DNA of 64,000 nucleotides from a virus (lineage: Duplodnaviria; Heunggongvirae; Uroviricota; Caudoviricetes): positions 1 through 64,000 of the IMG/VR virus record IMGVR_UViG_3300008108_000023; one strand, 5' to 3'. This document shows, piece by piece, positions 490-50,367 of the stretch; within the stretch, counting starts at the first letter, position 1; the number at the start of each line of letters is the position of its first letter. The translations under genes and the position numbers were made by a program. The notes below the pieces were generated by a model. The model was not told where the DNA came from, ran no database searches, and saw only the letters and a program-made list of their open reading frames with translations.

Positions 490-690
490 GTCCTTTTGTT
501 TTTAACAAAAATAACCAATTAATTTGAATATTCCAAAAAATCTTAATTATTTTCTCGTAAGGTATTGTTTAATTGTTCTAAAGAGTTGTTCAATTGAATC
601 AAACTGTAATTGTAATTCTCCATGACTCTGGCTAAACTTTCTATGGTCATTCTTAAACTTACCAACGGGTCGGCATATCCCCTTAATAAT

Positions 691-4888: not shown

Positions 4889-5325
4889 AAGGGATATCTT
4901 TCCATAATCACATTTTTCTTCAAATATAAAAATTTTTTTGTGAAATCCAAAAAAATCACAAAAAAAAACACCCTAATTTATCCAACTTTCAGGTGTTATG
5001 GTTGTCCCCGTTGCCGGGTTAGGAATAGACTTACAGGGGCACGTTGTTCTTTATCACCCTTTTGGTATTCCCCGCGGATAGTCAGTCCGAATAAGACGTT
5101 GTCTTATTATCAGTCCTCTACGGTTATCACACCGTTTCTCATCATGTGAGGCACACTATCCGATGATTAATCGGAACGTTTCTTTAGATATTCTTTTCTT
5201 GTTCTATATTCCCCTACTTTGTAACCAGCGAGAAACCAAAGAGAGAATCCTATGTATACTAAAATAACTGTCATAATTAATTTTGATACAAATATAATGT
5301 ATATTTTTTAATATGCAAAAATATT

Positions 5326-11540: not shown

Positions 11541-11576
11541 ATTCTAAATATAAATGATTTTTTTGATAAAACAAAA

Positions 11577-15911: not shown

Positions 15912-15937
15912 AAAAAAAAATCCCCTTTCGGGGATTA
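15912..15937 (-). terminator. rho-independent terminator (AATCCCC-TTTC-GGGGATT hairpin + U-run)
   Basis: Perfect 7-bp G/C-rich stem immediately after the stop of 15940..16296, followed by an A9 run on the + strand (U-run on the minus transcript). Confidence 0.7.
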
Positions 15938-15939
15938 AA

Positions 15940-16296
15940 TTAATATGGATTTTCAAATGTCAACGAGTCTAAGGACTCATCTATTTTGGAATTATACCAC
16001 CCATTTATCCAACATTTTGTGGTATCACCAATTTTGGCGGGTTTATTGGTTAGTATTGTGACACCATTTTCAAATGTTATATGATATTGATTTTGGAATA
16101 TTTCTTCACAGGATACTACCGGTACAGGATACCACTCTTTTTCGCTCCTTGGTATAACTTCCTCACTTATTTCTTCCTCAACTATATTTTCATCTGTAAT
16201 ATAGTTATGTATCTTTTCTTTATTAAAATGAAGAATACCAGTGAAAATTATGACCGTTATAAACGCCAAAAGAATCCTGACTTGTTTTATATCCAT
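15940..16296 (-). CDS. membrane-anchored protein (N-terminal TM)
   Basis: 118-aa ORF; start overlaps the stop of the glucosaminidase gene (ATGA); N-terminal hydrophobic helix. Confidence 0.5.
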   Translation of the reverse strand: MDIKQVRILLAFITVIIFTGILHFNKEKIHNYITDENIVEEEISEEVIPRSEKEWYPVPVVSCEEIFQNQYHITFENGVTILTNKPAKIGDTTKCWINGWYNSKIDESLDSLTFENPY

Positions 16297-16298
16297 GA

Positions 16299-16865
16299 TT
16301 AAAATTTTTCTTTTAATTTTTCAGTTTGAATTATGTCTTTCAATAATTTAACATACCCTTCACCCGCTTCGGCGTAGGTATTTGATAAATACAAATAGTA
16401 TTCATTTTCAGTATTAATCTGACCAAGGTATCGGCATTGGTAAAACGCATAATCATAAACAGATTGGTACCAGTTATCATAAAACGCGTGACCGTTTTGA
16501 GTTCCTTTGGCGGTGTTGATTCTAACTGTCGCCTGTTTCATACCAAACAGATTATTATTTTCCTTGAAAACTTGACTTTTGTAATGTCCCGTCTCAGCAA
16601 TGGCTTGAGCCATAACAATATGTGGAAATTTAACGTTTAATCTTTTTAGTTCTGATACAAACTTATCCTCTGAAAATTTATTTTTTTCTTTTTCTAATGA
16701 AATTACGATTAATTCTTTTTCGTAACTGTCCAAACTTTTAAACCGTATAAAACGACCTAAAATAAATGAAGAGATTACCAAAACAATTACAACCGACAAC
16801 GCGATTTTTACTTTTTTCCAATCCTTTTTCCAAAGGAGTAGAGAGTTATCATATTTGTAAAACAT
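16299..16865 (-). CDS. mannosyl-glycoprotein endo-beta-N-acetylglucosaminidase-family peptidoglycan hydrolase with N-terminal TM anchor
   Basis: MAQAIAETGHYKS...NNLFGMK matches the glucosaminidase (FlgJ/LytD-like) domain core; N-terminal TM segment. Confidence 0.7.
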   Translation of the reverse strand: MFYKYDNSLLLWKKDWKKVKIALSVVIVLVISSFILGRFIRFKSLDSYEKELIVISLEKEKNKFSEDKFVSELKRLNVKFPHIVMAQAIAETGHYKSQVFKENNNLFGMKQATVRINTAKGTQNGHAFYDNWYQSVYDYAFYQCRYLGQINTENEYYLYLSNTYAEAGEGYVKLLKDIIQTEKLKEKF

Positions 16866-16906: not shown

Positions 16907-17287
16907 TTAACTTTTCGTAAAATGGTCCACGACCATTCTTGCACTTGAGTAGTTTGTAGCTAATGCCACTTCGTGCACATCACAAACCCTCATTAACATT
17001 TGTACATCAGGTTCGTGCGGGTGTTTATCCAATGGGTCCCTAAAAAATATAACCGCATCGATTTCTTTTCTCGAGACCATTGCAGCAATTTCCGCGTCTC
17101 CACCCATTGGTCCTGAATTGACTTGTTCAACCTTTGTAACACCAGCAAACATTATTCTTTTACCTGTCGTACCCGTTGCAACAATATCAACATCGGTTCG
17201 ATTAAAAAAATCTAATCGTTTCATTACAAAGGCAACCATGTCCGCCTTCTTACCGTCGTGTGCTATGAGTGCTATTTTCATAATCAA
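16907..17287 (-). CDS. mgsA: methylglyoxal synthase
   Basis: IALIAHDGKK, ATGTTG, GPMGGD, DAVIFFRDPL and HEPDV motifs align along the whole 126-aa length with bacterial MgsA. Confidence 0.85.
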   Translation of the reverse strand: MIMKIALIAHDGKKADMVAFVMKRLDFFNRTDVDIVATGTTGKRIMFAGVTKVEQVNSGPMGGDAEIAAMVSRKEIDAVIFFRDPLDKHPHEPDVQMLMRVCDVHEVALATNYSSARMVVDHFTKS

Positions 17288-17751
17288 AAAATAAACAACC
17301 TACCCCCAATCATAAACTGAGGTTTATCGGTTTGATAAAAACTTAAAGTTAAGTACAAGGGATATGATAATTTCAAATTTGCAGCGGTCTTCAATATAAT
17401 TTGATTACCACCATCAACAGATAAACCCGCCCCACCTGTTAAAATTAACCATTTATAATCTTTATTTGTGTAAACGTAATTTAAAACAACATAAATTTCT
17501 TCAGGTCTACCATTGATTGTTAAAGTATTGGGGTTAAATAAATTTAATTCGGCCATCAATTTACCATAACCAATTCCAATAAAGGCATTTGTTTTTTCTT
17601 TGGAGAATTCGTAACCCGCGGAATAATATGATGAATTACCTCTAGGACCATAAGATAATCCATAATTGAATATTCTTTGGGGTACTCTTAACCCTTGTGC
17701 CCATGTGTTGTTCATCAACAGCATACAAAATATCATTAAGAATTTTTTCAT
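17284..17751 (-). CDS. small outer-membrane beta-barrel-like protein
   Basis: Signal peptide (MKKFLMIFCMLLMNNTWAQ), alternating amphipathic strands, aromatic-rich sequence, C-terminal ...RLFIF ending in Phe. Confidence 0.5.
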   Translation of the reverse strand: MKKFLMIFCMLLMNNTWAQGLRVPQRIFNYGLSYGPRGNSSYYSAGYEFSKEKTNAFIGIGYGKLMAELNLFNPNTLTINGRPEEIYVVLNYVYTNKDYKWLILTGGAGLSVDGGNQIILKTAANLKLSYPLYLTLSFYQTDKPQFMIGGRLFIF

Positions 17752-17809
17752 TTTTTATGATTTACATACAAATATATTACTAGTATTTGAGATATCCAAA
17801 TTTTTTTTC

Positions 17810-17835
17810 AAAAAAAAGAGGGACCGAAATCCCTC
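17810..17835 (-). terminator. rho-independent terminator (GAGGGA-CCGAAA-TCCCTC + U-run)
   Basis: Hairpin just downstream of the stop of 17861..18901, with an A8 run on + (U-run for the minus transcript). Confidence 0.6.
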
Positions 17836-17860
17836 CTTACAAATTTAGATTTGATTGTAA

Positions 17861-18901
17861 TTAAATTCTCCTCAAGGTGGCATTTTCATTGTCATAGGTT
17901 CCTCGTAAGATTTCTCTCGGTCCTTCCGACATCATTCCACTTGTCTCGTACGCCCTTTCTTCCACAACCGCTTCAACATCACGTTCAACTACCCATTCTC
18001 TCTCTTCTCTTATATCCACATTTCTCATATCCATATCAGCTTCACCCATTGGGGATTCCATATCCGTTGGTTCTGGTAGTACCTCCATTTTGGTAAACTC
18101 TTTCAGTAACACATCCTCTTTGATTCTATCTTCTTCAGTCAACAAAGAGTTGTTGGTTACTGGGTTTTCACTAACTTCATTTTTAATGACACCCAATATA
18201 AAATCAGGTAAACCACTTTCTAATGAATCGATACGAGAATCAATTTGATTCCAAAAAGAAAATTCAGGGTCTGAGTCGAGTGATTTAAAGCAACCAACTT
18301 TTAATCCTGTTAATTTATTAATCACATAAATAAGGATACCTCTTTTGGAGTATCTTAGGAAATAATCCGGGTTATTCTCAGACGACGTACACCATTTTGT
18401 TGATGACCCATATTTCTTTGAGGCGTAAAACGTTAAAGGTCTTAAAACAATCCACTCATCTGAAGTGAACAATGTGTGAATTTGTTTTTCCAAATCTTTC
18501 TCGAAAGCTTTAATCTCAGCGAGACTAGTCGCCGTCATTACATCGTCAAAAGATTTAAATTTAGATAAGTCATTATCTTGAATCAATCCTCTTTCATTGT
18601 AATCACAAAATTTTTGGAATGTTTTTAAATCTGAAAAATTAAAACTCTGTTCCAAAAATCTGTAAGAGCTAAAAATTTGAAATGGGGTCATTCCTTTAAA
18701 GTGGTCATCTGTAATTCCAAATTCTCTTTTTAGATTCTCACGAACTTCATTGACGTACATGTCTAAATGTTTCGTGTTTTTTGAAAGTCGAATTAAAAAT
18801 TCGATGTACTTAGATTTACCCTCAGGGCAAAAGATTTGAAAGACATCAACCATATTTATGTTGTTGTCAGGATTTTGTTTTAGTTCTTTGATTCGTGACA
18901 T
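17861..18901 (-). CDS. hypothetical protein
   Basis: 346-aa ORF. Confidence 0.55.
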   Translation of the reverse strand: MSRIKELKQNPDNNINMVDVFQIFCPEGKSKYIEFLIRLSKNTKHLDMYVNEVRENLKREFGITDDHFKGMTPFQIFSSYRFLEQSFNFSDLKTFQKFCDYNERGLIQDNDLSKFKSFDDVMTATSLAEIKAFEKDLEKQIHTLFTSDEWIVLRPLTFYASKKYGSSTKWCTSSENNPDYFLRYSKRGILIYVINKLTGLKVGCFKSLDSDPEFSFWNQIDSRIDSLESGLPDFILGVIKNEVSENPVTNNSLLTEEDRIKEDVLLKEFTKMEVLPEPTDMESPMGEADMDMRNVDIREEREWVVERDVEAVVEERAYETSGMMSEGPREILRGTYDNENATLRRI

Positions 18902-23392: not shown

Positions 23393-23906
23393 CTGATGTA
23401 CTCACACGAAGTCCATCGATTATTAAATCATCATATTTTTCGTTGTCCATCCAAAACATTCCGTGGCCTTTCGACCTTTGGTCTCTCCTGTATTCTTCAT
23501 TTACAACCCAACCATCTGGTTGACCCCACTCAAGAGCCATGGTGATAAACTCTTCAACATTCCATTCTTCACCATATTCATCCACAATTCTTCCTGAACG
23601 AATAAATGAAAGTAGTTCTTCTTTATTTGAATAATGTTTATTATTATGAAAATTCCAACAAAACTTCCACCCACCACTTCTTTTACCTAAATGAATTGAT
23701 GTACCATCTCTGAATATGTCCCAAGGGCTAACTATCTCCCAAGATTCTTTAAATGGGTCAATAAAGGGAAATCCACGTTCAATATCACTAGGTGACATTG
23801 TCATCTTTTCTATATCTCTTTGGAGACGTGATTTACGTGACTCCATTTCCTCTGCGGTCGGTATACGATAATAATTTGTACCCATTTTAAAATTAATATG
23901 GGCCAA
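23379..23906 (-). CDS. hypothetical protein
   Basis: 175-aa ORF overlapping the start of the MPP gene. Confidence 0.5.
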   Translation of the reverse strand: MAHINFKMGTNYYRIPTAEEMESRKSRLQRDIEKMTMSPSDIERGFPFIDPFKESWEIVSPWDIFRDGTSIHLGKRSGGWKFCWNFHNNKHYSNKEELLSFIRSGRIVDEYGEEWNVEEFITMALEWGQPDGWVVNEEYRRDQRSKGHGMFWMDNEKYDDLIIDGLRVSTSVDFS

Positions 23907-23942
23907 ATATATGAAATAATTTTGGATATACCAAAATATTGC

Positions 23943-25501: not shown

Positions 25502-26830
25502 TTACGCTAAAGATTTGATTTTTGGACTGGCACCTCTTTCGTAACCATCTACAACTTTGGCAACCAAAGTACCAGTACCCCAAGTCTTAAGTGATTCACA
25601 CTTAGCAATTTCCGCAGCACCAATATCATTTACCAAACCATCAACAATACAAGTATAAAGACCATTTCTCAATGTTTTGATGGTTGCTTTCATACCGTCT
25701 TCTAAAGATTTGTAATTTTTAACACCAACACTATTTGCGTTAGTGGAACCCGGTAAATCCCATGTGGTATTAAATGGATTATATTTTCCACCCGAACCTT
25801 CTGACTGTCTCCAAGCGTATAAGAATTTTAAGTTTTCCTCACTTTCGGGTGCACCTAAATTTTCAAGTAGTTTTTTATAAAAATTGATGTCCGTTAAACC
25901 GTCAACATTGATTTGTGAATTTTTAGCCGCTTGGTCAAGGTATTGTTTTAACTCTTCGGATTTAACACCTTTAGCTTTTAATAATTCCAATAACTTATTT
26001 AACATTTCAGGTGTGGCATTTTCAGAAGTACCACTACTAGAAGATGATTTACCACCATATTGTAAATGAAAATGACCACCAGTTGCGGCTTTGGTTGGAT
26101 TGGTGTATTCATCTATGTATGAAAAATTACCATCACTACTTTTTGTTGAGTTGAGTAATTTTATAAAATCGGAAGCGTTTTTTGAATTATATGGATTTAA
26201 AACCAAATCAATTGCATTTCCTTTGGTGTGTTGACTTACGTAATTTAAATTATGGTGGAATTTATCGTTACCTGCGGTTATGGTAACCTCAACATCAGGA
26301 TTACTTTGACTGTACTTGTCAAGAATTTGACTAACAATATCTGTGAGTTTGTCATTAATAGAACCACCACTGGTTAACTCATTACCTTTTTCGGTGTAAC
26401 CTAAATCATCTAATTTATCTCTTAATGAATCGGCACTTTCTTTGATTACAGAATTATCTGATTTGAATTTTCTAACAGCACTTGCGGTTTCAGGACCAAA
26501 TAAACCATCAACACCAAATTTAGGTAACTCATAACCCAAGAGTATTAAACCAATTTGCATAGTTTCGACACCTTTTTGATATTCCATAGAACCTCTTGGT
26601 TGTTCTGATAACCCACCCTGAGCTGCGGTATCTTCTAATGTCTTATAAAATTCTGCAACGTCAGGTGAAACTAAGTCCGCCTTTTTGGGGTCGTCTATTT
26701 TTTTTTCGTCTTTTTTACCTAACCCAATTTTACCCAATAAATCATCGATAAAATTTTCATTTACCATTGATTTACCGTAGGTAATTTCATGGATTCGTTG
26801 TAATTCTTCTTGTAGTGTGGGTTTTTTCAT
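25502..26830 (-). CDS. peptidoglycan-binding protein with M15-family (VanY/L-Ala-D-Glu peptidase-like) domain; candidate lysin
   Basis: PG_binding_1-like LILLGYELPKFGVDGLFGPETASAVRKF; downstream SQHTKGNAIDL (SxHxxGxAxD) and GGHFHLQY motifs typical of peptidase M15. Confidence 0.6.
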   Translation of the reverse strand: MKKPTLQEELQRIHEITYGKSMVNENFIDDLLGKIGLGKKDEKKIDDPKKADLVSPDVAEFYKTLEDTAAQGGLSEQPRGSMEYQKGVETMQIGLILLGYELPKFGVDGLFGPETASAVRKFKSDNSVIKESADSLRDKLDDLGYTEKGNELTSGGSINDKLTDIVSQILDKYSQSNPDVEVTITAGNDKFHHNLNYVSQHTKGNAIDLVLNPYNSKNASDFIKLLNSTKSSDGNFSYIDEYTNPTKAATGGHFHLQYGGKSSSSSGTSENATPEMLNKLLELLKAKGVKSEELKQYLDQAAKNSQINVDGLTDINFYKKLLENLGAPESEENLKFLYAWRQSEGSGGKYNPFNTTWDLPGSTNANSVGVKNYKSLEDGMKATIKTLRNGLYTCIVDGLVNDIGAAEIAKCESLKTWGTGTLVAKVVDGYERGASPKIKSLA

Positions 26831-29692: not shown

Positions 29693-31096
29693 TTATTTTG
29701 AAATATATTCATATTTTTCTTTAGTCCATGTCATATTGGAATATTTCATCATTTTTTTTGATATTTCATTTATTGCGGGATTGAAATAAGACTCAACAGG
29801 ACTATTGGCCTTACCAAAAGACATTATCAAACTACCTTTTTTATATTCTAAATTAATCTTTGTTCGATTACATTTCATGGAAAGATAGATATAGACCACA
29901 CCTTTGCTGAATTGTTTAGACATACAATTTTTCATCATAAATCCTTCAGTGAAAAAATCCTCTTCGGTTTTGAGTATTTTGGTTTGAAAAACTTTATTGT
30001 CAATTATAATGTCAGATTCTATTTCATTTATGAACTCCTCATTAAATGAATATCTTGTTTTGTAACCCCTTTTAAAATGATTTTTTATGTTTTCAAATTT
30101 ATTTAAAAGTAATTCTACAGAGTCGGAATCGCTCGCATTAAATTTACAGGGGATATTTTTGGATTCTATGAATTCTCGAAGATTCATTAATTTGTTCACC
30201 AACTCAACAAAATTATCTTTATATAGGTTTGTGGTTTCCCAATCATTAATAACCTTGACCATCATGGATTTTTCTTTATCATTTTTCAAAGTGTGGAATT
30301 TTCTGAAATTAGAATTACGTTTTACAATGTCGTGCCACTTAGTTTGTCTTAAATAATCAACGTAACCATCACCAAAAAGTTTACATAGAAAGCTTAGACT
30401 TTTAATATTCACATCAAAGTTTTGTGGTTTATTTAATTCAGCAATCAAGTACTTTGATTTAATTCCATACGAATCTAAAATAGAAGGTAAAAATTTATTA
30501 TCATTTAATTTTAACCATTTTTTCTGTGGATACTCTTGTTGAATTGTGGTGTAAACAGTATCATGGTATTTTATATTTTTCTTTGATAAATGAAAATCAA
30601 CTAACAAATCATATAGTGGATTAATATAGCATTTCTCTTGATAATTCTTTTCAATATTAAAATTTGACTCAGATTGTATTTTGGATATTAAAATATTAAT
30701 AATGTCCTGAATTGATTTATTATACCTTTTACCCCAATAATCTTTTCTCTTTTCACCCTTGTACATGCCGTTTTCTATTAGTGCAAGTATTGAATCAAAA
30801 TTATTCTTCTTTCTATTATTTTTACTTCTACCTTTATCACCTTCACTCACTGAATAGTTTGATAATTGGTAGTAAGTATTTATGTCCCCGTTTTTTAAAT
30901 TAACCGTGAACCCGTGATGGATGGTAAGGATGTTTTTTATTCCGTATCGTAAATAATCGAAAGAAAAATCCGCGATATAGTGTATCAAACTATCATATTG
31001 ATACAACTGTAATTCACAAATCGAAACCGAATTGTTCGTTTTGGATTTTTTGTTTTGATAATGTCTAAGTAACAAATCCATGTATAAAATATACAT
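29693..31096 (-). CDS. large K/N-rich protein, paralog A of a tandem pair
   Basis: Shares LPSILDSYGIKSKYLIAELNKPQNF... and C-terminal EEDFFTEGFMMKNCMSKQF blocks with 31120..32955. Confidence 0.55.
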   Translation of the reverse strand: MYILYMDLLLRHYQNKKSKTNNSVSICELQLYQYDSLIHYIADFSFDYLRYGIKNILTIHHGFTVNLKNGDINTYYQLSNYSVSEGDKGRSKNNRKKNNFDSILALIENGMYKGEKRKDYWGKRYNKSIQDIINILISKIQSESNFNIEKNYQEKCYINPLYDLLVDFHLSKKNIKYHDTVYTTIQQEYPQKKWLKLNDNKFLPSILDSYGIKSKYLIAELNKPQNFDVNIKSLSFLCKLFGDGYVDYLRQTKWHDIVKRNSNFRKFHTLKNDKEKSMMVKVINDWETTNLYKDNFVELVNKLMNLREFIESKNIPCKFNASDSDSVELLLNKFENIKNHFKRGYKTRYSFNEEFINEIESDIIIDNKVFQTKILKTEEDFFTEGFMMKNCMSKQFSKGVVYIYLSMKCNRTKINLEYKKGSLIMSFGKANSPVESYFNPAINEISKKMMKYSNMTWTKEKYEYISK

Positions 31097-31119: not shown

Positions 31120-32955
31120 TTAAAACTCTATGTCACCATTCATCAGTTGTTCAAATAAATCAGGTTCTCTTTGGTTGACTTCCTTCCCATTTATTTTAAC
31201 TTTCACCTTTTTAATATCAATGTGGTTCAATAATCTTTGTGACGCAAATTTTCTAACTCTTTGTTTTAATATTTCTAATGATTCACCAAAATACTCAGGT
31301 GGTAACTTATTACAAAAATGTCTCTCCTGAATACAGTCACCTGTTTTTTTGTTAAACTCACATGTTACTCTATCTGAACCACCGTTGGTCCTCAATGAAA
31401 TTATCATTGATGATTCTTTGTTTGCGTAACTGGCAACACAGTGGTGCATAAATGTACCCTCTTCCGAATATTCTTCTTCTCTCTTTAATATCACAGGAGA
31501 AAAAATATGATTGTCGTTCTCAAATCGAGTCTTTATTTGTTCCTCCACTAATCTCACCATTCTGTTGTCATATTGATATTCGATTGACCAACCCTTTTTG
31601 ATTAATGAACATGTCTTGGATAGTTCAATGTGCTCTGTATGAAAGTCCGTGTAATTTGTTGCCCTCATTTTTATGTTAGGGTCAAATTCACGAATCTTTT
31701 CAATCATATCGAAGTGGTCTTTTATCAAAGTGTATATACCTCGAGTAACCGACGATACTGAATGGTCTCCTGCCGGTTTGGGAATCAGGGAATTTAAAAT
31801 TTTAATGATATTTTCCCTATCAACATTATCAATAAACAGGTGTCGGTGGTGATTTTTAGCACCTCTCAATTCAAGCGGTACCATAGAATGTGCATTACCA
31901 TTATCTACCATAAAAAGATTAAAACATTCACTTTTCAAAGAACCGAGGTATTTTGGATAATCCTTTCCAAGTAAATCACACATACATGAAAACTCTTGTA
32001 AATTTAATTTTGGATTTTCATGGAAAAGTTTCAAGGTAAATTTTGAATTTATTCCGTAACTATCCAAAATAGATTGCATTAATTTTCTCTGATTCTTTTT
32101 AAGGTATTTTTCAGTTGGGTAATGTATTTTAATAAGTGGTACAAAGTCGTTTGGTGTTTTTATTTTTTTCTTTTCCGCAAAGAATTCAATAAAACTAGTT
32201 ATAAAAAAATGTTTATCAAATAAGTTTCCAACGTTAGTAGGTAAGTTTGGAATGTGATTTTTAATAACATTTACAAATTCGTGTTCATTAAATGTGTCAT
32301 CAAATTCCTTAGCGATTTTAAGATTGTTACTAAACTCTTTTTTTAAATTGAAAAGACTGTTTGAACCCAACAAGATTTCTAACGTAGTAAATGAATTTTT
32401 TCTAAATCTTTTGGATTTTATCTTTCCAAAATTCATATCCCCAATCGTAAAATCTCCCTTCTGTAAATCAATTGTTAACGTCATTACCTTGGAAGATTTA
32501 CGGAAATATTTCCAATTAAAATCACGATATCTGGTATTCTTGTAACACCTTATGTAAAGTTTACCTTCTCTAAGTTCTATTGTTCTTTCAAATGTTACAA
32601 TTTGTATTGATGAGAAAGGATTCCCATAATGTCTTTTTAAATGTTTTTCACTTGTTGTGTAACAAGGTTCTTTTGTCAATTTTATGAAAGAAACGTATTC
32701 TTTTTCTTTTTCACCATAAAAATATTTTGTCCTCGCACCCTTTGATGGTCTTGGTTCCAATTTTATGGTTTCAAATTTGGTATCCCTATTTACAACGGGC
32801 TCAAGTGTCTTAACCTGTTCAGTAAATAAAAAATCATCATCCAGTTCTTTACCATCAGATACAACAATTGGTATTGGTCTATCTTCAGACAACATACAAT
32901 TATCCCTAACTAAATCTATTCTGAAATAAGAAAATCTTTGTTTGATGAGTTGCAT
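31120..32955 (-). CDS. large K/N-rich protein, paralog B of a tandem pair (PcfJ-like HCV motif?)
   Basis: MQSILDSYGINSKFTLKLFHENPKLN... and EEGTFMHHCVASYANKESSMI blocks collinear with paralog A. Confidence 0.6.
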   Translation of the reverse strand: MQLIKQRFSYFRIDLVRDNCMLSEDRPIPIVVSDGKELDDDFLFTEQVKTLEPVVNRDTKFETIKLEPRPSKGARTKYFYGEKEKEYVSFIKLTKEPCYTTSEKHLKRHYGNPFSSIQIVTFERTIELREGKLYIRCYKNTRYRDFNWKYFRKSSKVMTLTIDLQKGDFTIGDMNFGKIKSKRFRKNSFTTLEILLGSNSLFNLKKEFSNNLKIAKEFDDTFNEHEFVNVIKNHIPNLPTNVGNLFDKHFFITSFIEFFAEKKKIKTPNDFVPLIKIHYPTEKYLKKNQRKLMQSILDSYGINSKFTLKLFHENPKLNLQEFSCMCDLLGKDYPKYLGSLKSECFNLFMVDNGNAHSMVPLELRGAKNHHRHLFIDNVDRENIIKILNSLIPKPAGDHSVSSVTRGIYTLIKDHFDMIEKIREFDPNIKMRATNYTDFHTEHIELSKTCSLIKKGWSIEYQYDNRMVRLVEEQIKTRFENDNHIFSPVILKREEEYSEEGTFMHHCVASYANKESSMIISLRTNGGSDRVTCEFNKKTGDCIQERHFCNKLPPEYFGESLEILKQRVRKFASQRLLNHIDIKKVKVKINGKEVNQREPDLFEQLMNGDIEF

Positions 32956-35306: not shown

Positions 35307-36632
35307 TTAATTACTTAAGGGTGCTTTAATCGATGGGTGTGATTGATAATTTTCGATTTGAAAATCCTTATTTTCCAAATGAGTTATTAAAGATGAGTCT
35401 TCAGATAATGATTTATAAAATTCATCGGTCTTCATATGTTTTAGTTTGGGTAATTTATAAGGTTCTCTTGTGTATCGTGGTATTTTATATATCTCATAAT
35501 ATTCAGACATACCTCCACCAAATGGTGCTAAGTCTTTCAACGCACTTTTATAACCATTAGGACCCATCGCCTCTTTTAACATACCTTCTCTCTCTTCATG
35601 TGTATACTTTCTACCGATTTGTTCTCTTGCTTGTTCAACATGGTTACTATACAAATGAGTATCACCTAAATTACCAATCAACTCATCAGGTACCATATTT
35701 ACTTCTTTAGCAATAATCTCAAGTAACAAACCGTAAGAAGCAATATTGAATGGTAGACCTAAGAATGTGTCTACTGAGCGTTGATTCCACATTAAAGAGA
35801 TTGCTCGTTTAGGAACTCTTAAACTATCCATGTGAACATCGTGATAATCACTACTTTGATTTAAAGGGTCTTTTGTTGAGTTATAATAATTAATCCTTTC
35901 ATCTAAACTCAACTCTCTCGTATAAACTTGAAATCCATAATGACAAGGTGGAAGAACCATTTGGTCCAGCTCTCCAACATTCCAAGCATTGACCATTAAT
36001 CGTCTTGAGTCTGGATTTGTTTTAAGGTCGTTGATTAGGTTTGTGATTTGGTCTATTGAATTGTTTTGGTATTCTATTTTGACACCATACTTGGTAACAT
36101 CTTCACCGATTTCAATTGCTTTTAGTACTCTGTGTTGGTCAGAACCTTTTACATCCTTTAAGTCGTAATTAGTCACATTCTTTCTACCCCATCTTCTCCA
36201 TTGCTTACCATACACAGGTCCGAGGTCACCCCACTTCTTAGCAAACTCATCATCGGTTTTTATTTTGTTGATGAATTCTTCTTTTGTTAATCGAAATCCT
36301 AACTCTAACATTTTTTCTTTTGACATATTAGGTAAGATTTTGGCATCTTCAATTAGATAGTTCTTATACGCATCACCATCCCAAATATGACAATTGTTAT
36401 CAACAAGGAACTTGATGTTTGTATCACCACGAAGGAACCATAACAATTCGGTTACCATCGTCTTCCACGCCATTTTCTTGGTTGTAAGTAATGGAAACCC
36501 ATCGGACATTTTATGACGGATTGTATAACCAAAAATAGATTTGGTTCCTGTACCTGTACGGTCTTTCTTTTCTACCCCATAATCTATAATAGTTTGGAGT
36601 AAGTCTGTGTATTGTTTATCTAATTTGTTCAT
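35307..36632 (-). CDS. thyA: thymidylate synthase (ThyA-type) with large insertions
   Basis: DRTGTGT, DLGPVYGKQWRRWG, NAWNVGELDQMVLPPCH, QRSVDTFLGLPFNIASY (the substrate-specificity Asn is retained) and DTHLYSNH motifs; 441 aa versus about 265-320 for typical ThyA. Confidence 0.85.
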   Translation of the reverse strand: MNKLDKQYTDLLQTIIDYGVEKKDRTGTGTKSIFGYTIRHKMSDGFPLLTTKKMAWKTMVTELLWFLRGDTNIKFLVDNNCHIWDGDAYKNYLIEDAKILPNMSKEKMLELGFRLTKEEFINKIKTDDEFAKKWGDLGPVYGKQWRRWGRKNVTNYDLKDVKGSDQHRVLKAIEIGEDVTKYGVKIEYQNNSIDQITNLINDLKTNPDSRRLMVNAWNVGELDQMVLPPCHYGFQVYTRELSLDERINYYNSTKDPLNQSSDYHDVHMDSLRVPKRAISLMWNQRSVDTFLGLPFNIASYGLLLEIIAKEVNMVPDELIGNLGDTHLYSNHVEQAREQIGRKYTHEEREGMLKEAMGPNGYKSALKDLAPFGGGMSEYYEIYKIPRYTREPYKLPKLKHMKTDEFYKSLSEDSSLITHLENKDFQIENYQSHPSIKAPLSN

Positions 36633-37792: not shown

Positions 37793-38221
37793 TTAAGGGT
37801 TGACATCGTTTTGTTCAGAATCTCTTATGTCAATTAATTTTTGAATTCTACTCCTACCTTTTTCACCAATTGGTACCGGATTACCTTCTTCATCAATCCT
37901 AACAAACCTTATGTTTGTTTTCAAGATGACAATTTGGTTACCTGTGTAAACATTATGTGCTCTTGCTTCCATATACAAGGTAACTGAAGTATTCCCTAAT
38001 TTACTTGGTGACCCGTAAATTTTAATCAACTGACCCTCTTTGGCTGGTTTTTCAAAAAAACATTTATCAATTGATACGGTAACTAATCTTGGTGAATCAC
38101 ACAATTGCATGGAGTATCCCGCAGCCGCCGCGTCAATCCACGCTAAAAGTTTTCCACCGAATAAATTTCCGTGGAATCCTAAATCCGACTTTTTTATGGG
38201 GTGTGAATTCAAAAATTCCAT
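37793..38221 (-). CDS. hotdog-fold acyl-CoA thioesterase (YciA/4HBT-like)
   Basis: GNLFGGKLLAWIDAAAAGY... region typical of acyl-CoA thioester hydrolases. Confidence 0.7.
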   Translation of the reverse strand: MEFLNSHPIKKSDLGFHGNLFGGKLLAWIDAAAAGYSMQLCDSPRLVTVSIDKCFFEKPAKEGQLIKIYGSPSKLGNTSVTLYMEARAHNVYTGNQIVILKTNIRFVRIDEEGNPVPIGEKGRSRIQKLIDIRDSEQNDVNP

Positions 38222-38569: not shown

Positions 38570-39694
38570 TTATTCTTCTTCATCTTTTCGATAACTTTCC
38601 AAGAGTTCCTCCCCTGAAAGTGTACCGTATTTATTTACAATTTTTTCGGTGTCTATTTCAACATTCATCATGTGATGAACATTATTTAATTCTTCGGCTA
38701 ATGATAAACTATCACTAATCACTTTAACGATTTTATATGGGTCCGCGTGTGATGCTGGTCTCCTGTCTTCAAGATAACCCTTCCATGTCTCACCAACGGA
38801 TTTTGGTACACGGATAGATGCACCTCTGTCTGAGACACCCCAACTAAATTTATCAATAGATTGTGTCTCAAAATGACCTGTTAATCTCAAATGGTTATCA
38901 GAACCATAAGAGTCAATATGTTCTTGTGTTCTTGATTCAAAAGACCTAAAAATTGCATTGAAGTATTGTTCACCACCCTCTTCTCTCATTTTTTGATTTG
39001 AGAAATTTGTATGTAAACCTGAACCGTTCCATTCTCCGTGGGTCATCGGTTTGGGATGTAACTCAATAGAACGACCATATTTCTCAGCAATTTTATGTAA
39101 AAAATATCTACTCATCCATAAATCATCAGAAGCGGCAATTTTACCTGTTGCAAAAATTTGGTATTCCCATTGACCTAATGCAACCTCTGAATTGGTTCCC
39201 TCCACATTGATGTCATATTTTAAACACATGTTCAAATGTTCATCAGAAATATTTCGACCAACAATATGTCCACCTACACCACAATAATAAATTCCTTGAC
39301 CGTCAATGATACCATTTCTTTCAAATCCAAGAATTGGATTATTATGTGAAGAACGAATAAAATATTCCTGTTCAAATCCAACCCAAAAATTTACATCTTC
39401 CTCACCTACTTTTGCTCTATGATTTGATGGATGAATTTCATTATTACCATCTAAAACCTCACATAATACATATACTGTATCAAGTGAACTATTTGTATGA
39501 TATAATTTTACTGGCTTAAGATAACAATCTGAAAAGTTACCTTCCGCTTGTTTAGTTGAGCTTCCGTCAAACCCCCAATTGGGGATGTGTTTCAATTCAA
39601 ATGGTGCCGGTAGGTCCACAATTTTTATTTTACTTCTGAGATTTGGCTCAGGGGAATACCCATCAAGCCATACGTATTCTACTTTTGTTTTCAT
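38570..39694 (-). CDS. glnA: glutamine synthetase, type II (eukaryote-like GS)
   Basis: GS signature WGFDGSSTKQAEGNFSDCYL and ATP-site KPMTHGEWNGSGLHTNFS, plus RGASIRVP; the 374-aa length fits GSII rather than GSI/GSIII. Confidence 0.85.
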   Translation of the reverse strand: MKTKVEYVWLDGYSPEPNLRSKIKIVDLPAPFELKHIPNWGFDGSSTKQAEGNFSDCYLKPVKLYHTNSSLDTVYVLCEVLDGNNEIHPSNHRAKVGEEDVNFWVGFEQEYFIRSSHNNPILGFERNGIIDGQGIYYCGVGGHIVGRNISDEHLNMCLKYDINVEGTNSEVALGQWEYQIFATGKIAASDDLWMSRYFLHKIAEKYGRSIELHPKPMTHGEWNGSGLHTNFSNQKMREEGGEQYFNAIFRSFESRTQEHIDSYGSDNHLRLTGHFETQSIDKFSWGVSDRGASIRVPKSVGETWKGYLEDRRPASHADPYKIVKVISDSLSLAEELNNVHHMMNVEIDTEKIVNKYGTLSGEELLESYRKDEEE

Positions 39695-42126: not shown

Positions 42127-43584
42127 ATGATTACAATAGGTTACAGTACAAGAGAGTCCAACCCAAAATTTCAAGAATATTTAAAAAAAACTTGTGGACA
42201 CCCCAAAGTTCAAGTTATTGAAAAAGTAAACAATGGTGAAAAAAGTCTTTCACAAACTTACAATGAAATTATTCAAGAGTCGATTCATGATATTGTCGTA
42301 CTTTGTCATGATGACATTTACTTTAATACGACTTCGTGGGGTAGAAAATTAGTCAAACATTTTGAAGAATCTGACTACGGGATTCTCGGTGTTGCCGGTA
42401 CAACCAATATTCATGAGAGTGGTAGGTGGTGGACAGATAATACCAAAATGGTTGGTATTGTTAATCATGAAAATGAGGGTAAAAAATGGGAATCGAGATA
42501 TGCAAATGGAATCCCAAATTCAATTCACGAAGTTTGTTTAGTGGATGGTTTATTCATTGGAATCCACAAAAACAGAATAAAACACACTTTTGATGAGTCA
42601 GTACCGGGTTTTCATTTTTATGATATGGTATTCTGTACTAGCAATCACTTAAGTGAGGTAAACATCGGTGTTATATACAACATAAGAATCACTCACAAAT
42701 CAATCGGAATGACCAATGATTCTTGGGAAAAGAATAGGGAATTTTACATTGAAAAATTTAAAGAGAACCTACCAATTAATATAACACCAAAAATTGATTA
42801 TGACATAACCAAACCAAAACAGTTTAAAGATAAATTTAATTTAATAGTTCAAACATCAAACGATAATGAAAATTTAATTCAGTTTTTTGAAAACATAAAA
42901 AAATTACCAGTGTTTGATAGTTTACAGATTTCACTCATCTCGACGGATACCAATATAGACAATATTAGAGAATTTGAATCTGAAAATATTAAAATTTACG
43001 AGGGTTTTTTTGATACATTAAATAAAAACTTATCAGTACTGAAATGGGATGAATCGTTTATGGAATCAAAAACAGATTTGTTATTTTTCAGTAATGATAC
43101 TGTTACCGTATTGAACGACGTTTTCTCAAGTATGTATTCAATATTTAAGAGTGAAAAAAATACTTTTGGGTGCGTCTTTCCTACAGTATTAGAAAACGAC
43201 CGAACAATTTTTTCAAATGGATTGGATATAGTTCAAAACAACGAACAGTTCAATTTAATTTTTAAAAACAAATCATCTTTTTTCAATATTTTACACGGAC
43301 ACTTTCCAAACAATTTTGGTAGTATTAGTGACTTTTTTGCCACTACATCTACAAATTTAAAAATGATTGATTGGTTTGATATTAATTTAGAAACATCAAT
43401 TTATAACTTAGATTTTGCGTTGAAAACTTTACTTAAAAAACGTAAAACATTCATTGACACAAACAGTGTGGTAATGATTGATATGGCATCAAAATTTGAA
43501 AAGGTTGATGTTGAATTAAAACAAGTCTTAGGTCAGTACATAAACTCACCTGAAATTAGAAAAAATATCAAACAATTAAGATGA
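42127..43584 (+). CDS. glycan-operon protein 1 (possible glycosyltransferase)
   Basis: 485-aa first ORF of the plus-strand operon; VLCHDDIYF DxD-like motif; weak. Confidence 0.55.
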   Translation: MITIGYSTRESNPKFQEYLKKTCGHPKVQVIEKVNNGEKSLSQTYNEIIQESIHDIVVLCHDDIYFNTTSWGRKLVKHFEESDYGILGVAGTTNIHESGRWWTDNTKMVGIVNHENEGKKWESRYANGIPNSIHEVCLVDGLFIGIHKNRIKHTFDESVPGFHFYDMVFCTSNHLSEVNIGVIYNIRITHKSIGMTNDSWEKNREFYIEKFKENLPINITPKIDYDITKPKQFKDKFNLIVQTSNDNENLIQFFENIKKLPVFDSLQISLISTDTNIDNIREFESENIKIYEGFFDTLNKNLSVLKWDESFMESKTDLLFFSNDTVTVLNDVFSSMYSIFKSEKNTFGCVFPTVLENDRTIFSNGLDIVQNNEQFNLIFKNKSSFFNILHGHFPNNFGSISDFFATTSTNLKMIDWFDINLETSIYNLDFALKTLLKKRKTFIDTNSVVMIDMASKFEKVDVELKQVLGQYINSPEIRKNIKQLR

Positions 43585-44360
43585 TAAAAATTGTATCGGG
43601 ATTTACAGAAAAAGGTGGTTCTACCACTTTTTTTATAAACTTAACAAATTTCTTAAATGAAAATGGTATTGATTGCACATTTTACGGTAATCAGAATTAC
43701 CATTTAGACAAATGTAAATCAGGGAACATTGAAAAAGATTTAAAGTATGAATCTGATGATATTGTAATTACCCATTTTTTACAACTACAGGAAAGACCAC
43801 CTGTTAAAAAAGTTATTTTGTCTTGTCATGAAAAATGGTGGTTCCCTGTTGGTAAAATTAAACAGTATTGGGACCTGTGCGTGTTTTTACATGAAGAGCA
43901 TCGAAAATATCACTCGGATTACAGGGGTGATTATGTAATAATACCAAACATCAAAGAAAATTTAATTATTTCAAATAAAGAGCTGGTAAGAAATATTGCA
44001 GGAATTATTGGTACAATTGAAGACAGAAAACAGACCCATGTGTCAATACAAAGAGCATTAAAAGACAGGTGTGAAAAAATCTATTTGTTCGGTCACATCG
44101 GTGACCAAAACTATTTTGACAAATTGGTAAAACCTTTAATGAATCCAAGAGTAATTCATTACGGTCACACCACCAATAAACAAGAAATGTACGATATGAT
44201 TGGTAAGGTATATCACTCATCAAAGGGTGAGGTTGCTTGTTTGGTTAAAGATGAATGTTATTTAACCGGTACAGAGTTTTATGGTAATGAAGAGACTATG
44301 AATGAAGTTTCTAAATTAAGTAACGAAGAGATATTAACACTTTGGAAAAACATATTTTAA
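43581..44360 (+). CDS. glycan-operon protein 2
   Basis: 259-aa ORF, ATGA overlap with upstream gene. Confidence 0.5.
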   Translation: MIKIVSGFTEKGGSTTFFINLTNFLNENGIDCTFYGNQNYHLDKCKSGNIEKDLKYESDDIVITHFLQLQERPPVKKVILSCHEKWWFPVGKIKQYWDLCVFLHEEHRKYHSDYRGDYVIIPNIKENLIISNKELVRNIAGIIGTIEDRKQTHVSIQRALKDRCEKIYLFGHIGDQNYFDKLVKPLMNPRVIHYGHTTNKQEMYDMIGKVYHSSKGEVACLVKDECYLTGTEFYGNEETMNEVSKLSNEEILTLWKNIF

Positions 44361-44361
44361 A

Positions 44362-45084
44362 ATGAAGATACACGCACATATACTGTCATGGAATGAAGAA
44401 AAAATATTACCATTCACATTGGATTACTATAGTACAATCTGTGAAAAAATATTCATATACGATAATATGTCAACGGACTCCTCTGATGAGATTTATAAGA
44501 GGTACCCAAAAGTTGAGGTTATTAAATGGGATAGTGGTAATGAAATAAATGAAATTAATTACGTAAACATTAAATCCGAAGAGTATAAAAAAAGAAGTAG
44601 AGGTCAGGGTGTTGATTGGGTTATAGTTTGTGACTGTGATGAGTTTATATACCATGAAAATCTTATGGATAAACTTCAAGAGTACAAAGAAATGGGTATA
44701 ACCGTCCCAAGAATAGACGGTCACGACATGGTTAGTACTGAATTTCCAATATACGACGGTGAATTCATTACAACAAAAATTAAAACAGGTTCACAAACGT
44801 ATGAACCAATGTGTAAAAATATAATTTTTCATCCTGATTTAGATATAAAATACGGCATTGGTGGTCACAGTTTTAATTCTGTTGATGGTAAATTTTCGGA
44901 TGAGCGGGAAATAAAACTTCTTCACTATAAATTCTTGGGTAAAGACTACGTGAAGAACATTTACATTTCAAGAGCAAAGAGATTGTCATCGTTCAATAAA
45001 CAACATAAATTCGGTGAACATTATTTTAATTTACCATTCAATTACATGGACAGCATGTTAAAAGAAAATTATCAAGTTATATGA
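44362..45084 (+). CDS. glycosyltransferase-like (GT-A, DxD)
   Basis: ILSWNEEKILPF...IYDNMSTD...VCDCDEFIYHE resembles Glyco_tranf_2_4-type GT-A proteins. Confidence 0.55.
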   Translation: MKIHAHILSWNEEKILPFTLDYYSTICEKIFIYDNMSTDSSDEIYKRYPKVEVIKWDSGNEINEINYVNIKSEEYKKRSRGQGVDWVIVCDCDEFIYHENLMDKLQEYKEMGITVPRIDGHDMVSTEFPIYDGEFITTKIKTGSQTYEPMCKNIIFHPDLDIKYGIGGHSFNSVDGKFSDEREIKLLHYKFLGKDYVKNIYISRAKRLSSFNKQHKFGEHYFNLPFNYMDSMLKENYQVI

Positions 45085-45902
45085 GGAAAATACTTATATC
45101 GGATTTTACCATTAAAGAAGTACCTCACGGTGGTTCTGAATGGGTGAATCAAGTTTTAATTGATAGATTTAATCTTGAGTTTGAATATTCAAACCAAGTC
45201 AAGTCATTTGATTACAACGCCCTGTATATTATATCAAATATTTCTTTGATGAACCCAAACTTGGTTAATCAAATACAAAATTTGAACTACGTCATTATTG
45301 AAAACGATTATAAAATATGTGCAAGTAGACACCCATGGAGATATACCGACAACATAATTCCGATTGAGGAAAGAACCAACTATTCTCTTTACCGGAATGC
45401 AAAAGCGGTATTTGTTCAAACAACCGACCACATGAACGTTTATCTTAAAAACGATGTTGTTGCTAATTTTATAAATCTGAATAGTTCGATATGGTCAAAT
45501 GAGGACTTAGAATTATTGAGGAATTTAAATAAATCCAACAATGTTAAAAACGACAAATATTCTGTTTACTATACAAATAATTGGATAAAGAACACCCAAG
45601 GTAGTCTGAAGTATTGTTCTGAAAATAAATTACCGGTCCATATTCTTAAAGAATCTAAAGACAGAGTTGAATTTTTAAGTAATATGGCCAAATGTAAAGG
45701 TATTGTGTTTTTCCCGATAGCAAGAGAAACTTTTTGTAGACTGGTTGTTGAGGCAAAATGTTTAGGTTTGGAAGTAATAACGACACAAAATTATGGTGCA
45801 AGTTTAGAAGAATGGTTTAATAGGTTATCAGGTGATGAATTAATTGATTTCTTAGAAACTAACACTTTAAAAAATTTAGAAATCATTTCAACTTATATAT
45901 GA
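45081..45902 (+). CDS. glycan-operon protein 4
   Basis: 273-aa ORF, ATGA overlap at both ends. Confidence 0.5.
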   Translation: MRKILISDFTIKEVPHGGSEWVNQVLIDRFNLEFEYSNQVKSFDYNALYIISNISLMNPNLVNQIQNLNYVIIENDYKICASRHPWRYTDNIIPIEERTNYSLYRNAKAVFVQTTDHMNVYLKNDVVANFINLNSSIWSNEDLELLRNLNKSNNVKNDKYSVYYTNNWIKNTQGSLKYCSENKLPVHILKESKDRVEFLSNMAKCKGIVFFPIARETFCRLVVEAKCLGLEVITTQNYGASLEEWFNRLSGDELIDFLETNTLKNLEIISTYI

Positions 45903-46891
45903 TATTATTTTGTTACGGCACAAGACCTGAGTATATTAAAATAAAAAAATTAATAGAAATGTGTGGGGAAAGTATTCCCCATAAAATTTTATATGTTACC
46001 CAACACAAAGATATTGTATTGGGTGATTTTGATTATAAATTATCCATTGATGATACGTGTGAAAATAGATTGGATAGTATTATGTCATCCGTATTTTTAA
46101 ATTTTAAAAAAGAATTTTTGGAAGGGGTTACACATATACTTATCCAAGGGGACACCGCAACCGCTCTTTCATTATCCCTAATAGGATTACACCATAAAAA
46201 AGAAGTGATTCATTTAGAAGCGGGATTACGGACATATGACTACAATCACCCTTACCCCGAAGAAATGTATCGGCAGTTAATTAGTAGAATTTCAAACTAT
46301 AATCTTTGCCCAACAGAAAGTAACAAGATGAACTTAGAAAATGAAAAAGTTCAGGGTAAAAATTTTGTAGTTGGCAATACCGTATTAGATAATCTTAATA
46401 AAGAAAATATTACATACGAAAATAAAGTCTTAATCACTTTACATAGAAGAGAGAATCATGAGATGATGTCGGAGTGGTTTGATGTTATCAATCGATTAGC
46501 AAAGAATAATCCTGAATTAAAATTCATTCTTCCAATACACCCAAACCCAAACGTCATAAAACACAAACATATATTGACACATGTTGATGTTATTGAACCA
46601 TTAACCCATGATAAATTTATTGAGGAATTCAAATCCTGTAAATTACTAATTTCAGATAGTGGGGGTGTTCAAGAAGAGGCGTCGTTCCTAAATAAGAAAG
46701 TTATTGTATGTAGAGAAAAAACTGAGAGACCTGAGTCCTTGGGTAAAACGTCTTTTATATGTAAAAAACCCATTGACTTAGAAGGTATTTTTTACGATAT
46801 TATTAACGATTTCCAAACAGAATATGATTGTCCTTTTGGTGATGGTAATTCTTGTGAAAGAATCATTGAAATATTTAGAAAAATTGTATGA
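45899..46891 (+). CDS. UDP-N-acetylglucosamine 2-epimerase (WecB/NeuC family)
   Basis: FCYGTRPEYIKI, HLEAGLRTYD, DSGGVQEEA, ERPE and FGDGNSCERI motifs collinear with E. coli WecB. Confidence 0.85.
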   Translation: MILFCYGTRPEYIKIKKLIEMCGESIPHKILYVTQHKDIVLGDFDYKLSIDDTCENRLDSIMSSVFLNFKKEFLEGVTHILIQGDTATALSLSLIGLHHKKEVIHLEAGLRTYDYNHPYPEEMYRQLISRISNYNLCPTESNKMNLENEKVQGKNFVVGNTVLDNLNKENITYENKVLITLHRRENHEMMSEWFDVINRLAKNNPELKFILPIHPNPNVIKHKHILTHVDVIEPLTHDKFIEEFKSCKLLISDSGGVQEEASFLNKKVIVCREKTERPESLGKTSFICKKPIDLEGIFYDIINDFQTEYDCPFGDGNSCERIIEIFRKIV

Positions 46892-47616
46892 GTATAACGG
46901 TAATATTAAATGGGTATAAAAGACCACATGTTCTCCAAAAACAATTGGAATCAATTAGAAATCAAAGTGTCCAACCCGAATCAATTTTATTTTGGCAAAA
47001 TTCTGGTTCTCAATTTGATGAGGGACTAACCAAAGATTTAATTCACGCATCTTGTAATAGTAATTTAGGTGTGTGGGCAAGATTTGCATTTGCTTTAAAT
47101 GCCAACACAGAATATATTTGTGTTTTTGATGATGACACAATACCGGGTAAACTATGGTTAGAAAACTGTCTAAACACCATGAAAATTCAAGAAGGTTTAT
47201 TAGGAACTATCGGTGTAAAATTTCACACAAAAAACTCTTATTGGCCAGCAACAAGAGTCGGTTGGGACCAACCTAACGAAGAAATTGAAAAGGTCGACAT
47301 TGTTGGTCACTCGTGGTTCTTTAAAAGAGAATGGTTATCGATATTTTGGAGAGAATTACCTGAAATCAATCAGAGTAAATTAGTTGGTGAGGATATGCAC
47401 TTTTCATATACATTACAGAAATACGCAAATATCGGAACTTACGTTCCTCCCCATCCTAAAGAAAATAGAGAAATGTGGGGTAGTATACCAGAATATGCAT
47501 GGGAACATGGAACTGATTCCAACGCAATTTCCGTAAATCATTCAAATATGAATTTAATGGGTGAAGTTTACCGTGGGTATGTAAATAAAGGATTTAAGAC
47601 AATATTAAATGATTGA
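46888..47616 (+). CDS. glycosyltransferase-like (DxD)
   Basis: ITVILNGYKRP...IRNQS and FDDDTIPG motifs. Confidence 0.55.
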   Translation: MSITVILNGYKRPHVLQKQLESIRNQSVQPESILFWQNSGSQFDEGLTKDLIHASCNSNLGVWARFAFALNANTEYICVFDDDTIPGKLWLENCLNTMKIQEGLLGTIGVKFHTKNSYWPATRVGWDQPNEEIEKVDIVGHSWFFKREWLSIFWRELPEINQSKLVGEDMHFSYTLQKYANIGTYVPPHPKENREMWGSIPEYAWEHGTDSNAISVNHSNMNLMGEVYRGYVNKGFKTILND

Positions 47617-48328: not shown

Positions 48329-48334
48329 TTCAGT

Positions 48335-48925: not shown

Positions 48926-48936
48926 AAATTATAAAA

Positions 48937-50365: not shown

Positions 50366-50367
50366 TA

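Follow-up and report, generated by a model that had tools for sequence, protein, structure and literature searches.

Why would a virus keep a gene for methylglyoxal synthase (MGS), an enzyme with a toxic product in a pathway that yields no ATP? The question is raised by a 64,000-nucleotide stretch of viral DNA, positions 1 to 64,000 of the IMG/VR record IMGVR_UViG_3300008108_000023 (Caudoviricetes; this whole stretch is called the window below), in which a minus-strand open reading frame (ORF), designated mgsA, had been predicted to encode a phage MGS. In bacteria, MGS turns dihydroxyacetone phosphate (DHAP) into methylglyoxal and phosphate; the latter inhibits it allosterically, and the enzyme has been proposed to have a function when phosphate is deficient (PMC4133812). 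We find it very likely that the phage-borne ORF encodes a functional MGS and, as far as sequence comparison can tell, mgsA is a host-derived auxiliary metabolic gene (AMG) on a phage. Its presence there bears on phage phosphate economy, on sugar-phosphate stress or on deliberate poisoning of the host.

The ORF listing of the window places the reading frame at 16907..17287 on the minus strand, with 126 amino acids counted from a TTG at 17287, which is as far as the frame extends. Translation very probably begins at an ATG at 17281, as the resulting 124-aa protein (MKIALIAHD...) has the length of most close homologues, and this start is also the one annotated publicly on a contig that encodes the identical protein. 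The mgsA gene (EC 4.2.3.3) would then occupy 16907..17281 and encode a short form of MGS that ends before the C-terminal tail, with Arg150, of the E. coli enzyme. The preceding ORF ends with a TGA stop codon (17286-17284), 2 nt before this ATG.

The mgsA product matches the NCBIfam equivalog model for MGS (NF003559) with 155.3 bits, a margin of 71 bits over the cutoff of 84, and the Pfam MGS family (PF02142) with 53 bits. A sequence search of the PDB gave 11 matches, every one an MGS, led by that of Thermus (E = 3.9e-33); for the E. coli enzyme (1b93), E = 4.7e-22. The score against TIGR00160, 145.6 bits, falls 1.3 bits under the cutoff of 146.9 and so counts against this assignment, the marginal shortfall being attributable to the short form of the protein, which does not extend over the C-terminal end of the profile. 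This shortfall, the inclusion in PF02142 of domains that are not MGS, and a weak match (16.5 bits) to PbeC in PADLOC could be taken as signs that an MGS fold has been put to some other use, as a CarB- or PurH-like regulatory or binding module or on a different phosphorylated substrate, or that the gene is a decaying passenger. We regard this as highly improbable, given the margin by which the NF003559 cutoff is passed and the residue, structural and selection data that follow; the PbeC match was dismissed as a reflection of the shared fold.

The phage protein was aligned with an E. coli MgsA reference verified to be identical to the sequence of PDB 1b93, and has the residues corresponding to H19, D20, K23, T45, T47, T48, S65, G66, D71, D91, P92, H98, D101 and R107 (E. 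coli numbering). From structural and mutagenesis work on the E. coli enzyme, we take Asp71 to be the base and His98, Asp101 and His19 to be catalytic, and assume the phosphate-site roles of Lys23, Thr45, Thr47, Thr48, Ser65 and Gly66 likewise; structures of the H98N and H98Q mutants exist (1s89 and 1s8a). In the 124-aa numbering, Asp71, His98, Asp101 and His19 become D62, H89, D92 and H8, and these are unchanged in 80 of the 80 viral homologues compared. The phosphate-site residues (K12, T36, T38, T39, S56 and G57, in the order given above) are all kept. Throughout the 80 IMG/VR homologues the active-site and phosphate-site positions are invariant, with the sole exception of Thr47, which is Ser in two, and this conservation argues against a changed function. 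The original prediction of a full-length MgsA with conserved motifs is therefore borne out, as every active-site and phosphate-site residue checked is present in the alignment and none of the catalytic residues has been lost.

An AlphaFold2 model of the monomer, built from a 35-sequence alignment, has a predicted local distance difference test (pLDDT) score of 86.6. When this model was compared with the PDB using Foldseek, the best 26 matches were all MGS, with template-modelling (TM) scores of 0.77-0.83 and E-values down to 4e-12 at 50% identity. The MGS-like domains of carbamoyl-phosphate synthetases (CPS) gave E-values of ~4e-4 or worse at 15-18% identity, and no PurH match was present within the top 50 structural matches. 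The original prediction had named a better match to a CarB or PurH domain as the outcome that would speak against an MGS; such an identity is rejected, as true MGS structures are ahead of the CPS domains by eight orders of magnitude in E-value.

The ratios of non-synonymous to synonymous substitution (dN/dS) also argue against an altered or decaying gene. They were calculated relative to the syntenic copies in related IMG/VR contigs of 46-311 kb (L001-L005) that have 14-32 genes in common with the window, including mgsA and the genes on either side of it. The dN/dS values are 0.018 (L001), 0.054 (L002), 0.069 (L003) and 0.12 (L005), and are rough because the dS values of 1.1-1.4 are near saturation. 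MgsA is 83-96% identical among these relatives, as against 37-76% for the product of the adjacent gene, a probable beta-barrel protein described below. On these values, mgsA is under strong purifying selection.

The phage protein resembles the short-form MGS of bacteria, represented in the PDB by the enzymes of Thermus sp. GH5 and T. thermophilus (2xw6, 2x8w, 1wo8), B. subtilis (6f2c) and Borrelia (8u2v). These are ~124-137 aa long and 48-55% identical to the phage MgsA, match its model with TM scores of 0.80-0.83, and have the same catalytic and phosphate residues and no Arg150 tail. The phage enzyme differs from them in being phage-encoded, in that no Crh-like partner, as in B. subtilis, is implied, and in having operon partners that are envelope rather than metabolic proteins. 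E. coli MgsA (1b93, 1egh, 1ik4) has the same fold and is 38-39% identical, and in comparison with it the phage protein lacks an 11-residue N-terminal extension and the C-terminal tail of ~25 residues that bears Arg150. Nor do any of the aligned relatives, 80 viral and 79 bacterial, have this tail. In E. coli, Arg150 forms a salt bridge with Asp20 of a neighbouring subunit that mediates phosphate cooperativity, with Pro92 and Arg107 providing a further allosteric pathway, and the MGS of Thermus and Bacillus are also without the tail, which is therefore not a defining feature of MGS (PMC4133812). The residues of the Pro92/Arg107 pathway are kept in the phage MgsA. Because the Arg150 tail is missing, a weaker phosphate cooperativity is to be expected, as in the Thermus enzyme, which has a Hill coefficient of 1.5 (PMC4133812).

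A viral AMG must lie within a viral genome. The window is densely filled with 112 ORFs, many of them shorter than 100 aa, and has a G+C content of ~32%, no tRNA detectable in a tRNA scan, and no rRNA, ribosomal protein or cellular housekeeping genes. Approximately 30 PHROG families are matched, on both sides of mgsA. They include a DNA helicase (phrog_1967, 3.6e-86), thymidylate synthase, 5'-3' deoxyribonucleotidase, an exonuclease, DNA methyltransferases, phrog_200, 547, 624 and 56, and several phage-only families to which no function is assigned. The helicase is nearest to those of Bacteroides phages DAC16-23 (36% identity), a Chryseobacterium phage and 29 Flavobacterium phage records. The 10-kb flanks of the window encode a primase, SbcCD-like proteins, a ClpP-type protease that matches head-maturation-protease PHROGs and a phage sigma factor (phrog_351, 1.7e-52).

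Neither the 64-kb window nor these flanks contain a recognizable capsid, portal or terminase gene, so that this lineage is assigned to the viruses on indirect grounds. Were the contig instead a piece of bacterial chromosome, a plasmid or some other cellular fragment, mgsA would be an ordinary bacterial gene, and the many metabolic and glycan genes in the window (glutamine synthetase, glycosyltransferases, epimerases), as well as 22 matches to MgsA in INPHARED 'phage' records that resemble host contamination, would fit such an origin. We consider it extremely improbable. The dense packing of mostly small ORFs, the lack of tRNA, rRNA and ribosomal protein genes, the PHROG matches and the affinity of the helicase to that of cultured phages all speak against it, and so do the contigs on which the proteins occur. 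The identical 124-aa protein is found in 110 public assembly blocks, 14 of which have it on contigs of 0.2-1 Mb and none on a contig of >1 Mb; two further window proteins are likewise never on contigs of >1 Mb and often on contigs of 0.2-1 Mb; and members of the 90% cluster of MgsA are on contigs of 240-321 kb. With phage families on either side of the gene, synteny with other IMG/VR contigs and this upper bound on contig size, the description of mgsA as phage-encoded is upheld. By the same evidence the carrier is a large (>200 kb, 'jumbo') uncultivated phage, and its host is most likely a member of the Bacteroidota. A megablast search of INPHARED with positions 14-22 kb of the window gave no match.

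Relatives of MgsA were found on at least 165 viral contigs by a pattern-seeded scan of IMG/VR, and the best 80, which are 60-97% identical to the phage MgsA, were those compared above. For these 80 viral loci, and for 80 bacterial mgsA loci, all ORFs were clustered so that neighbours could be compared. The viral contexts vary widely. In about 10 loci mgsA is followed by genes for a 4HBT thioesterase and a thymidylate synthase, and in L064-L080 it adjoins a major head protein gene (phrog_138, 4.2e-66) and a head protease gene (phrog_207), a position next to structural genes that argues further against the window being a cellular fragment. The viral and bacterial loci have no gene cluster in common save mgsA itself, so that no neighbour of a bacterial mgsA is found beside a viral one. 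No glyoxalase or pho gene was found next to the viral mgsA genes, their only recurrent neighbours being the thioesterase and thymidylate synthase genes. The thioesterase gene was noted in L003/L004, L027, L054 and L056-L061, and in the approximately 10 loci mentioned it is directly 3' of mgsA, often with thymidylate synthase next. In the window, a 4HBT-superfamily thioesterase gene (37793-38221, minus strand; Pfam 1.1e-15) is located 20 kb from mgsA. A functional link between mgsA and the thioesterase, for example through hydrolysis of a lactoyl-thioester, would be pure speculation.

A search for cellular homologues, with one genome for each of 185,579 species, identified Bacteroidota as the nearest cultured relatives (Algoriphagus, Odoribacter, Butyricimonas, Saprospiraceae; 58-66% identity). 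Seven contigs from metagenome-assembled genomes (MAGs), designated L081-L087, encode proteins that are 66-72% identical to the phage MgsA, or 76% over a partial match for L085. Chromosomal MgsA of Bacteroidota, including those of uncultured Flavobacteriales MAGs, are thus its nearest cellular kin and have the same short architecture, in neighbourhoods wholly unlike the viral ones. That L081-L087 might be mis-binned phage was considered and rejected, as the neighbouring genes are cellular, encoding a protein sorted by the type IX secretion system, a TonB receptor, LpxC-FabZ and 2-oxoglutarate dehydrogenase; neighbours were scanned for L081, L083, L086 and L087, with which L082 and L084 have neighbour-gene clusters in common. 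L081-L083 (CAJXRZ010000124.1, JBLHMA010000002.1 and CAJQPC010000081.1) have 62-65% G+C, and their MgsA, at 70-72% identity, are above those of any cultured Bacteroidota. One of these three is labelled Cognaticolwellia, probably as a result of mis-binning.

In a neighbour-joining tree, all of the viral MgsA and the seven MAG sequences form one clade, apart from ~70 Bacteroidota sequences, with bootstrap values of 32-48%. The weak support for the viral grouping and the nesting within it of seven genuinely bacterial sequences weigh against our account of the gene; with bootstrap values this low, one or more transfers, in either direction, would fit, and we do not press the case for a single acquisition. 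The G+C content of mgsA, 40.7%, is the highest of all window ORFs of at least 100 aa (mean 32.5%, standard deviation 3.0, z = 2.7), and its G+C content at third codon positions is 35% vs 28%, which is compatible with a foreign origin or with amino-acid constraints. Cyanophages carry AMGs of central carbon and phosphate metabolism, such as talC, zwf, gnd, cp12, pstS and phoH. Like other viral AMGs, the phage mgsA is a host-derived metabolic enzyme gene that is kept by purifying selection.

The statement that MgsA is rarely described as a viral AMG also held: we found three passing mentions in AMG lists, and no PHROG family, no viral structure in BFVD at E = 1e-3 or better and no credible INPHARED genome that matches it. 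The 22 INPHARED matches obtained by tblastn are all <50% identical, come from unannotated, fragmentary 'Listeria/Enterococcus phage' and human-faecal records, and were judged to represent DNA of host type, not relatives of the phage mgsA. A survey of Lake Baikal places mgsA on a 120-kb viral scaffold, with up to 8.8% of reads (PMC8066274), and brine-pool and plastisphere viromes have it filed under methane metabolism (bioRxiv 10.1101/2024.01.25.577265; PMC12397222); in all three it is just a KEGG entry in a list of AMGs. Surveys that place mgsA under 'methane' or 'propanoate' metabolism misread the gene. No functional or comparative study of a viral mgsA was found in the full-text literature searched. 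The gene is scarce in the viral literature yet not in nature, as the at least 165 IMG/VR contigs with close relatives attest, and an intact, widespread and conserved copy in large phages that is missing from curated phage resources makes for a real, testable case.

The arrangement of genes and signals around mgsA places it second in a predicted transcription unit of four genes, encoding a beta-barrel protein, MgsA, a glucosaminidase and a small membrane protein, with its own promoter-like element and bracketed by hairpins. All of these features are on the minus strand. At the 5' boundary, a terminator-like hairpin with a 10-bp stem and a T-run (17815..17838) closes the upstream unit, with its 346-aa ORF (17861-18901). 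L001, L002 and L005 have this hairpin, too, 5' of their beta-barrel genes, and the two sides of its stem have changed in a compensatory manner (GAGGGA/TCCCTC vs GGGGGT/ACCCCC). Between the hairpin and the first ATG of the cassette, and conserved in the same three loci, is the promoter-like element TTTGGATATCTCAAATACTAGTAATATATTTG (17769..17800), which ends 17 nt ahead of the ATG at 17751. It has the form TTTG-N20-TAnnTTTG, which we take to be that of Bacteroidota sigma-A promoters, with -33 and -7 elements. An extended motif, TTTGGn6CAAAn9TATATTTG, has five matches in the window (506-537, 5289-5320, 11545-11576, 17769-17800 and 23904-23935), all on the minus strand and mostly just 5' of genes, vs 0.12 expected. 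As these five sites also served to define the motif, the test is in part circular. The extended motif is also present in the related loci L001-L005. The recurrence of this motif probably marks one temporal class of promoters of the phage. A scan for sigma-70 promoters found 18 vs 14.4 expected in a shuffled background, and so no excess.

The original prediction had mgsA between an outer-membrane-protein-like gene and a membrane-anchored glucosaminidase gene, and both neighbours proved to be as described. The first gene of the cassette (17284..17751) encodes a 155-aa protein with a signal peptide and the C-terminus ...LFIF that is probably an eight-stranded outer-membrane beta-barrel. It has no family match in four libraries and just 18 homologues among 5.8 billion proteins, all 63-100% identical. 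The glucosaminidase-family peptidoglycan hydrolase (188 aa; 16299..16865; Pfam PF01832, E = 1.2e-13) is encoded 41 nt beyond mgsA, and has a single N-terminal transmembrane or signal-anchor helix at residues 19-37, as assessed by hydropathy. It matches PHROG endolysin families, the best being phrog_21890 (1.1e-11). Its gene is 3' of mgsA in all of L001-L005, where the trio of beta-barrel, mgsA and glucosaminidase genes is kept. The last gene of the cassette (15940..16296) encodes a protein of 118 aa, with a single transmembrane helix near the N-terminus (residues 6-24), to which no function is assigned and for which tblastn gave no match in L001-L005. Directly 3' of it, a terminator-like hairpin, AATCCCCGAAAGGGGATT, followed by a T-run (15919..15936), forms the 3' boundary. 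No holin or spanin family is matched within the four-gene unit. Other candidate lysins are encoded in the window at 25502-26830, with a peptidoglycan-binding domain, and at 62467-63072, with a weak match to Amidase_2.

What, then, might the enzyme contribute to an infection? The original prediction offered three possibilities, a rewiring of glycolytic overflow in the host, a shift in the phosphate/DHAP balance and a timed toxic burst. Tentatively, we suggest that the phage MgsA would serve as an overflow valve that senses phosphate, and would remove phosphate from DHAP at times when free phosphate is scarce and triose phosphates accumulate. The phosphate so freed could enter the pool used for nucleotide and DNA synthesis, serving the heavy demand of a genome of >200 kb, and removal of DHAP would relieve sugar-phosphate stress. 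The methylglyoxal formed would be handled by host detoxification, or be tolerated for the latent period. The proposal fits with the presence in the window of many other genes for enzymes that liberate phosphate, namely three metallophosphoesterases, HAD phosphatases, a deoxyribonucleotidase and a NUDIX hydrolase, and with the retention in the phage MgsA of the phosphate-site residues and of those of the Pro92/Arg107 pathway. Several observations weigh against it. No pho-regulon genes (phoH, pstS) are seen near mgsA; the presumably co-transcribed genes encode envelope rather than metabolic proteins, with which a late or lysis-linked role would fit at least equally well; and the scanned parts of the window contain no glyoxalase or other gene for detoxification of methylglyoxal, so that the phage has no obvious means of countering its toxicity. 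Taken as a whole, with a functional phage MGS and a role as a valve combined, we consider the explanation reasonably probable.

The same observations lead to the main rival role, in which methylglyoxal is the purpose rather than a by-product. As a deliberately made electrophile, timed by expression from a late cassette, it would arrest growth and macromolecular synthesis of the host or aid its collapse near lysis. The position of mgsA in one hairpin-bounded unit, 2 nt past the gene for a secreted beta-barrel protein and 41 nt ahead of that for an endolysin-like, membrane-anchored hydrolase, is what such a burst would lead one to expect, as are the conservation of the trio in L001-L005, the lack of a detoxification gene and the short form of the enzyme, without the tail by which the E. 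coli enzyme responds more cooperatively to phosphate (PMC4133812). We nevertheless think it unlikely. In most other phage lineages mgsA is located by thymidylate synthase and thioesterase genes or by head genes, so the link with the envelope is specific to this lineage; with other lysin candidates in the window and no holin or spanin identified, the cassette need not be a lysis module; and as the phosphate-binding residues are kept, phosphate should still restrain the enzyme. A stronger version, in which mgsA is a working part of a conserved envelope/lysis operon with a programmed pulse of methylglyoxal as its effector, appears quite doubtful. If true, such a pulse could cause ion efflux and acidification in the host, stop synthesis, time lysis, or modify or cross-link the operon partners or the envelope, and the phage would then have a virus-encoded weapon in the form of a small electrophilic molecule.

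Several other features of the window were noted. On the plus strand, 42127-54236 is occupied by ~14 co-oriented genes for glycan synthesis, and the G+C skew changes sign across this block. They encode several GT2-type glycosyltransferases, two FkbM-type methyltransferases, a UDP-GlcNAc 2-epimerase (45899-46891; Pfam 4e-60) and an NAD-dependent epimerase/dehydratase (53175-54236). A 374-aa glutamine synthetase-like protein with Gln-synt_N and Gln-synt_C domains is encoded at 38570-39694 (minus strand) and is another candidate AMG, with homologues of 52-56% identity in the viral loci L051 and L075. The thymidylate synthase of the window (35307-36632, minus strand) is 441 aa long vs ~300-350 aa in its relatives and matches PHROG 160 in two stretches, which suggests that it carries one or more insertions. 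A 248-aa ORF at 63187-63933 (minus strand), without a family match, has an N-terminal hydrophobic segment and long tandem repeats of PEPIVEE(Q)P(V/I). Two large ORFs that lie next to each other (29693-31096 and 31120-32955, minus strand) encode 467 and 611 aa; their C-terminal regions look alike by eye, and that of the second includes a PcfJ-like domain (Pfam 2.7e-11).

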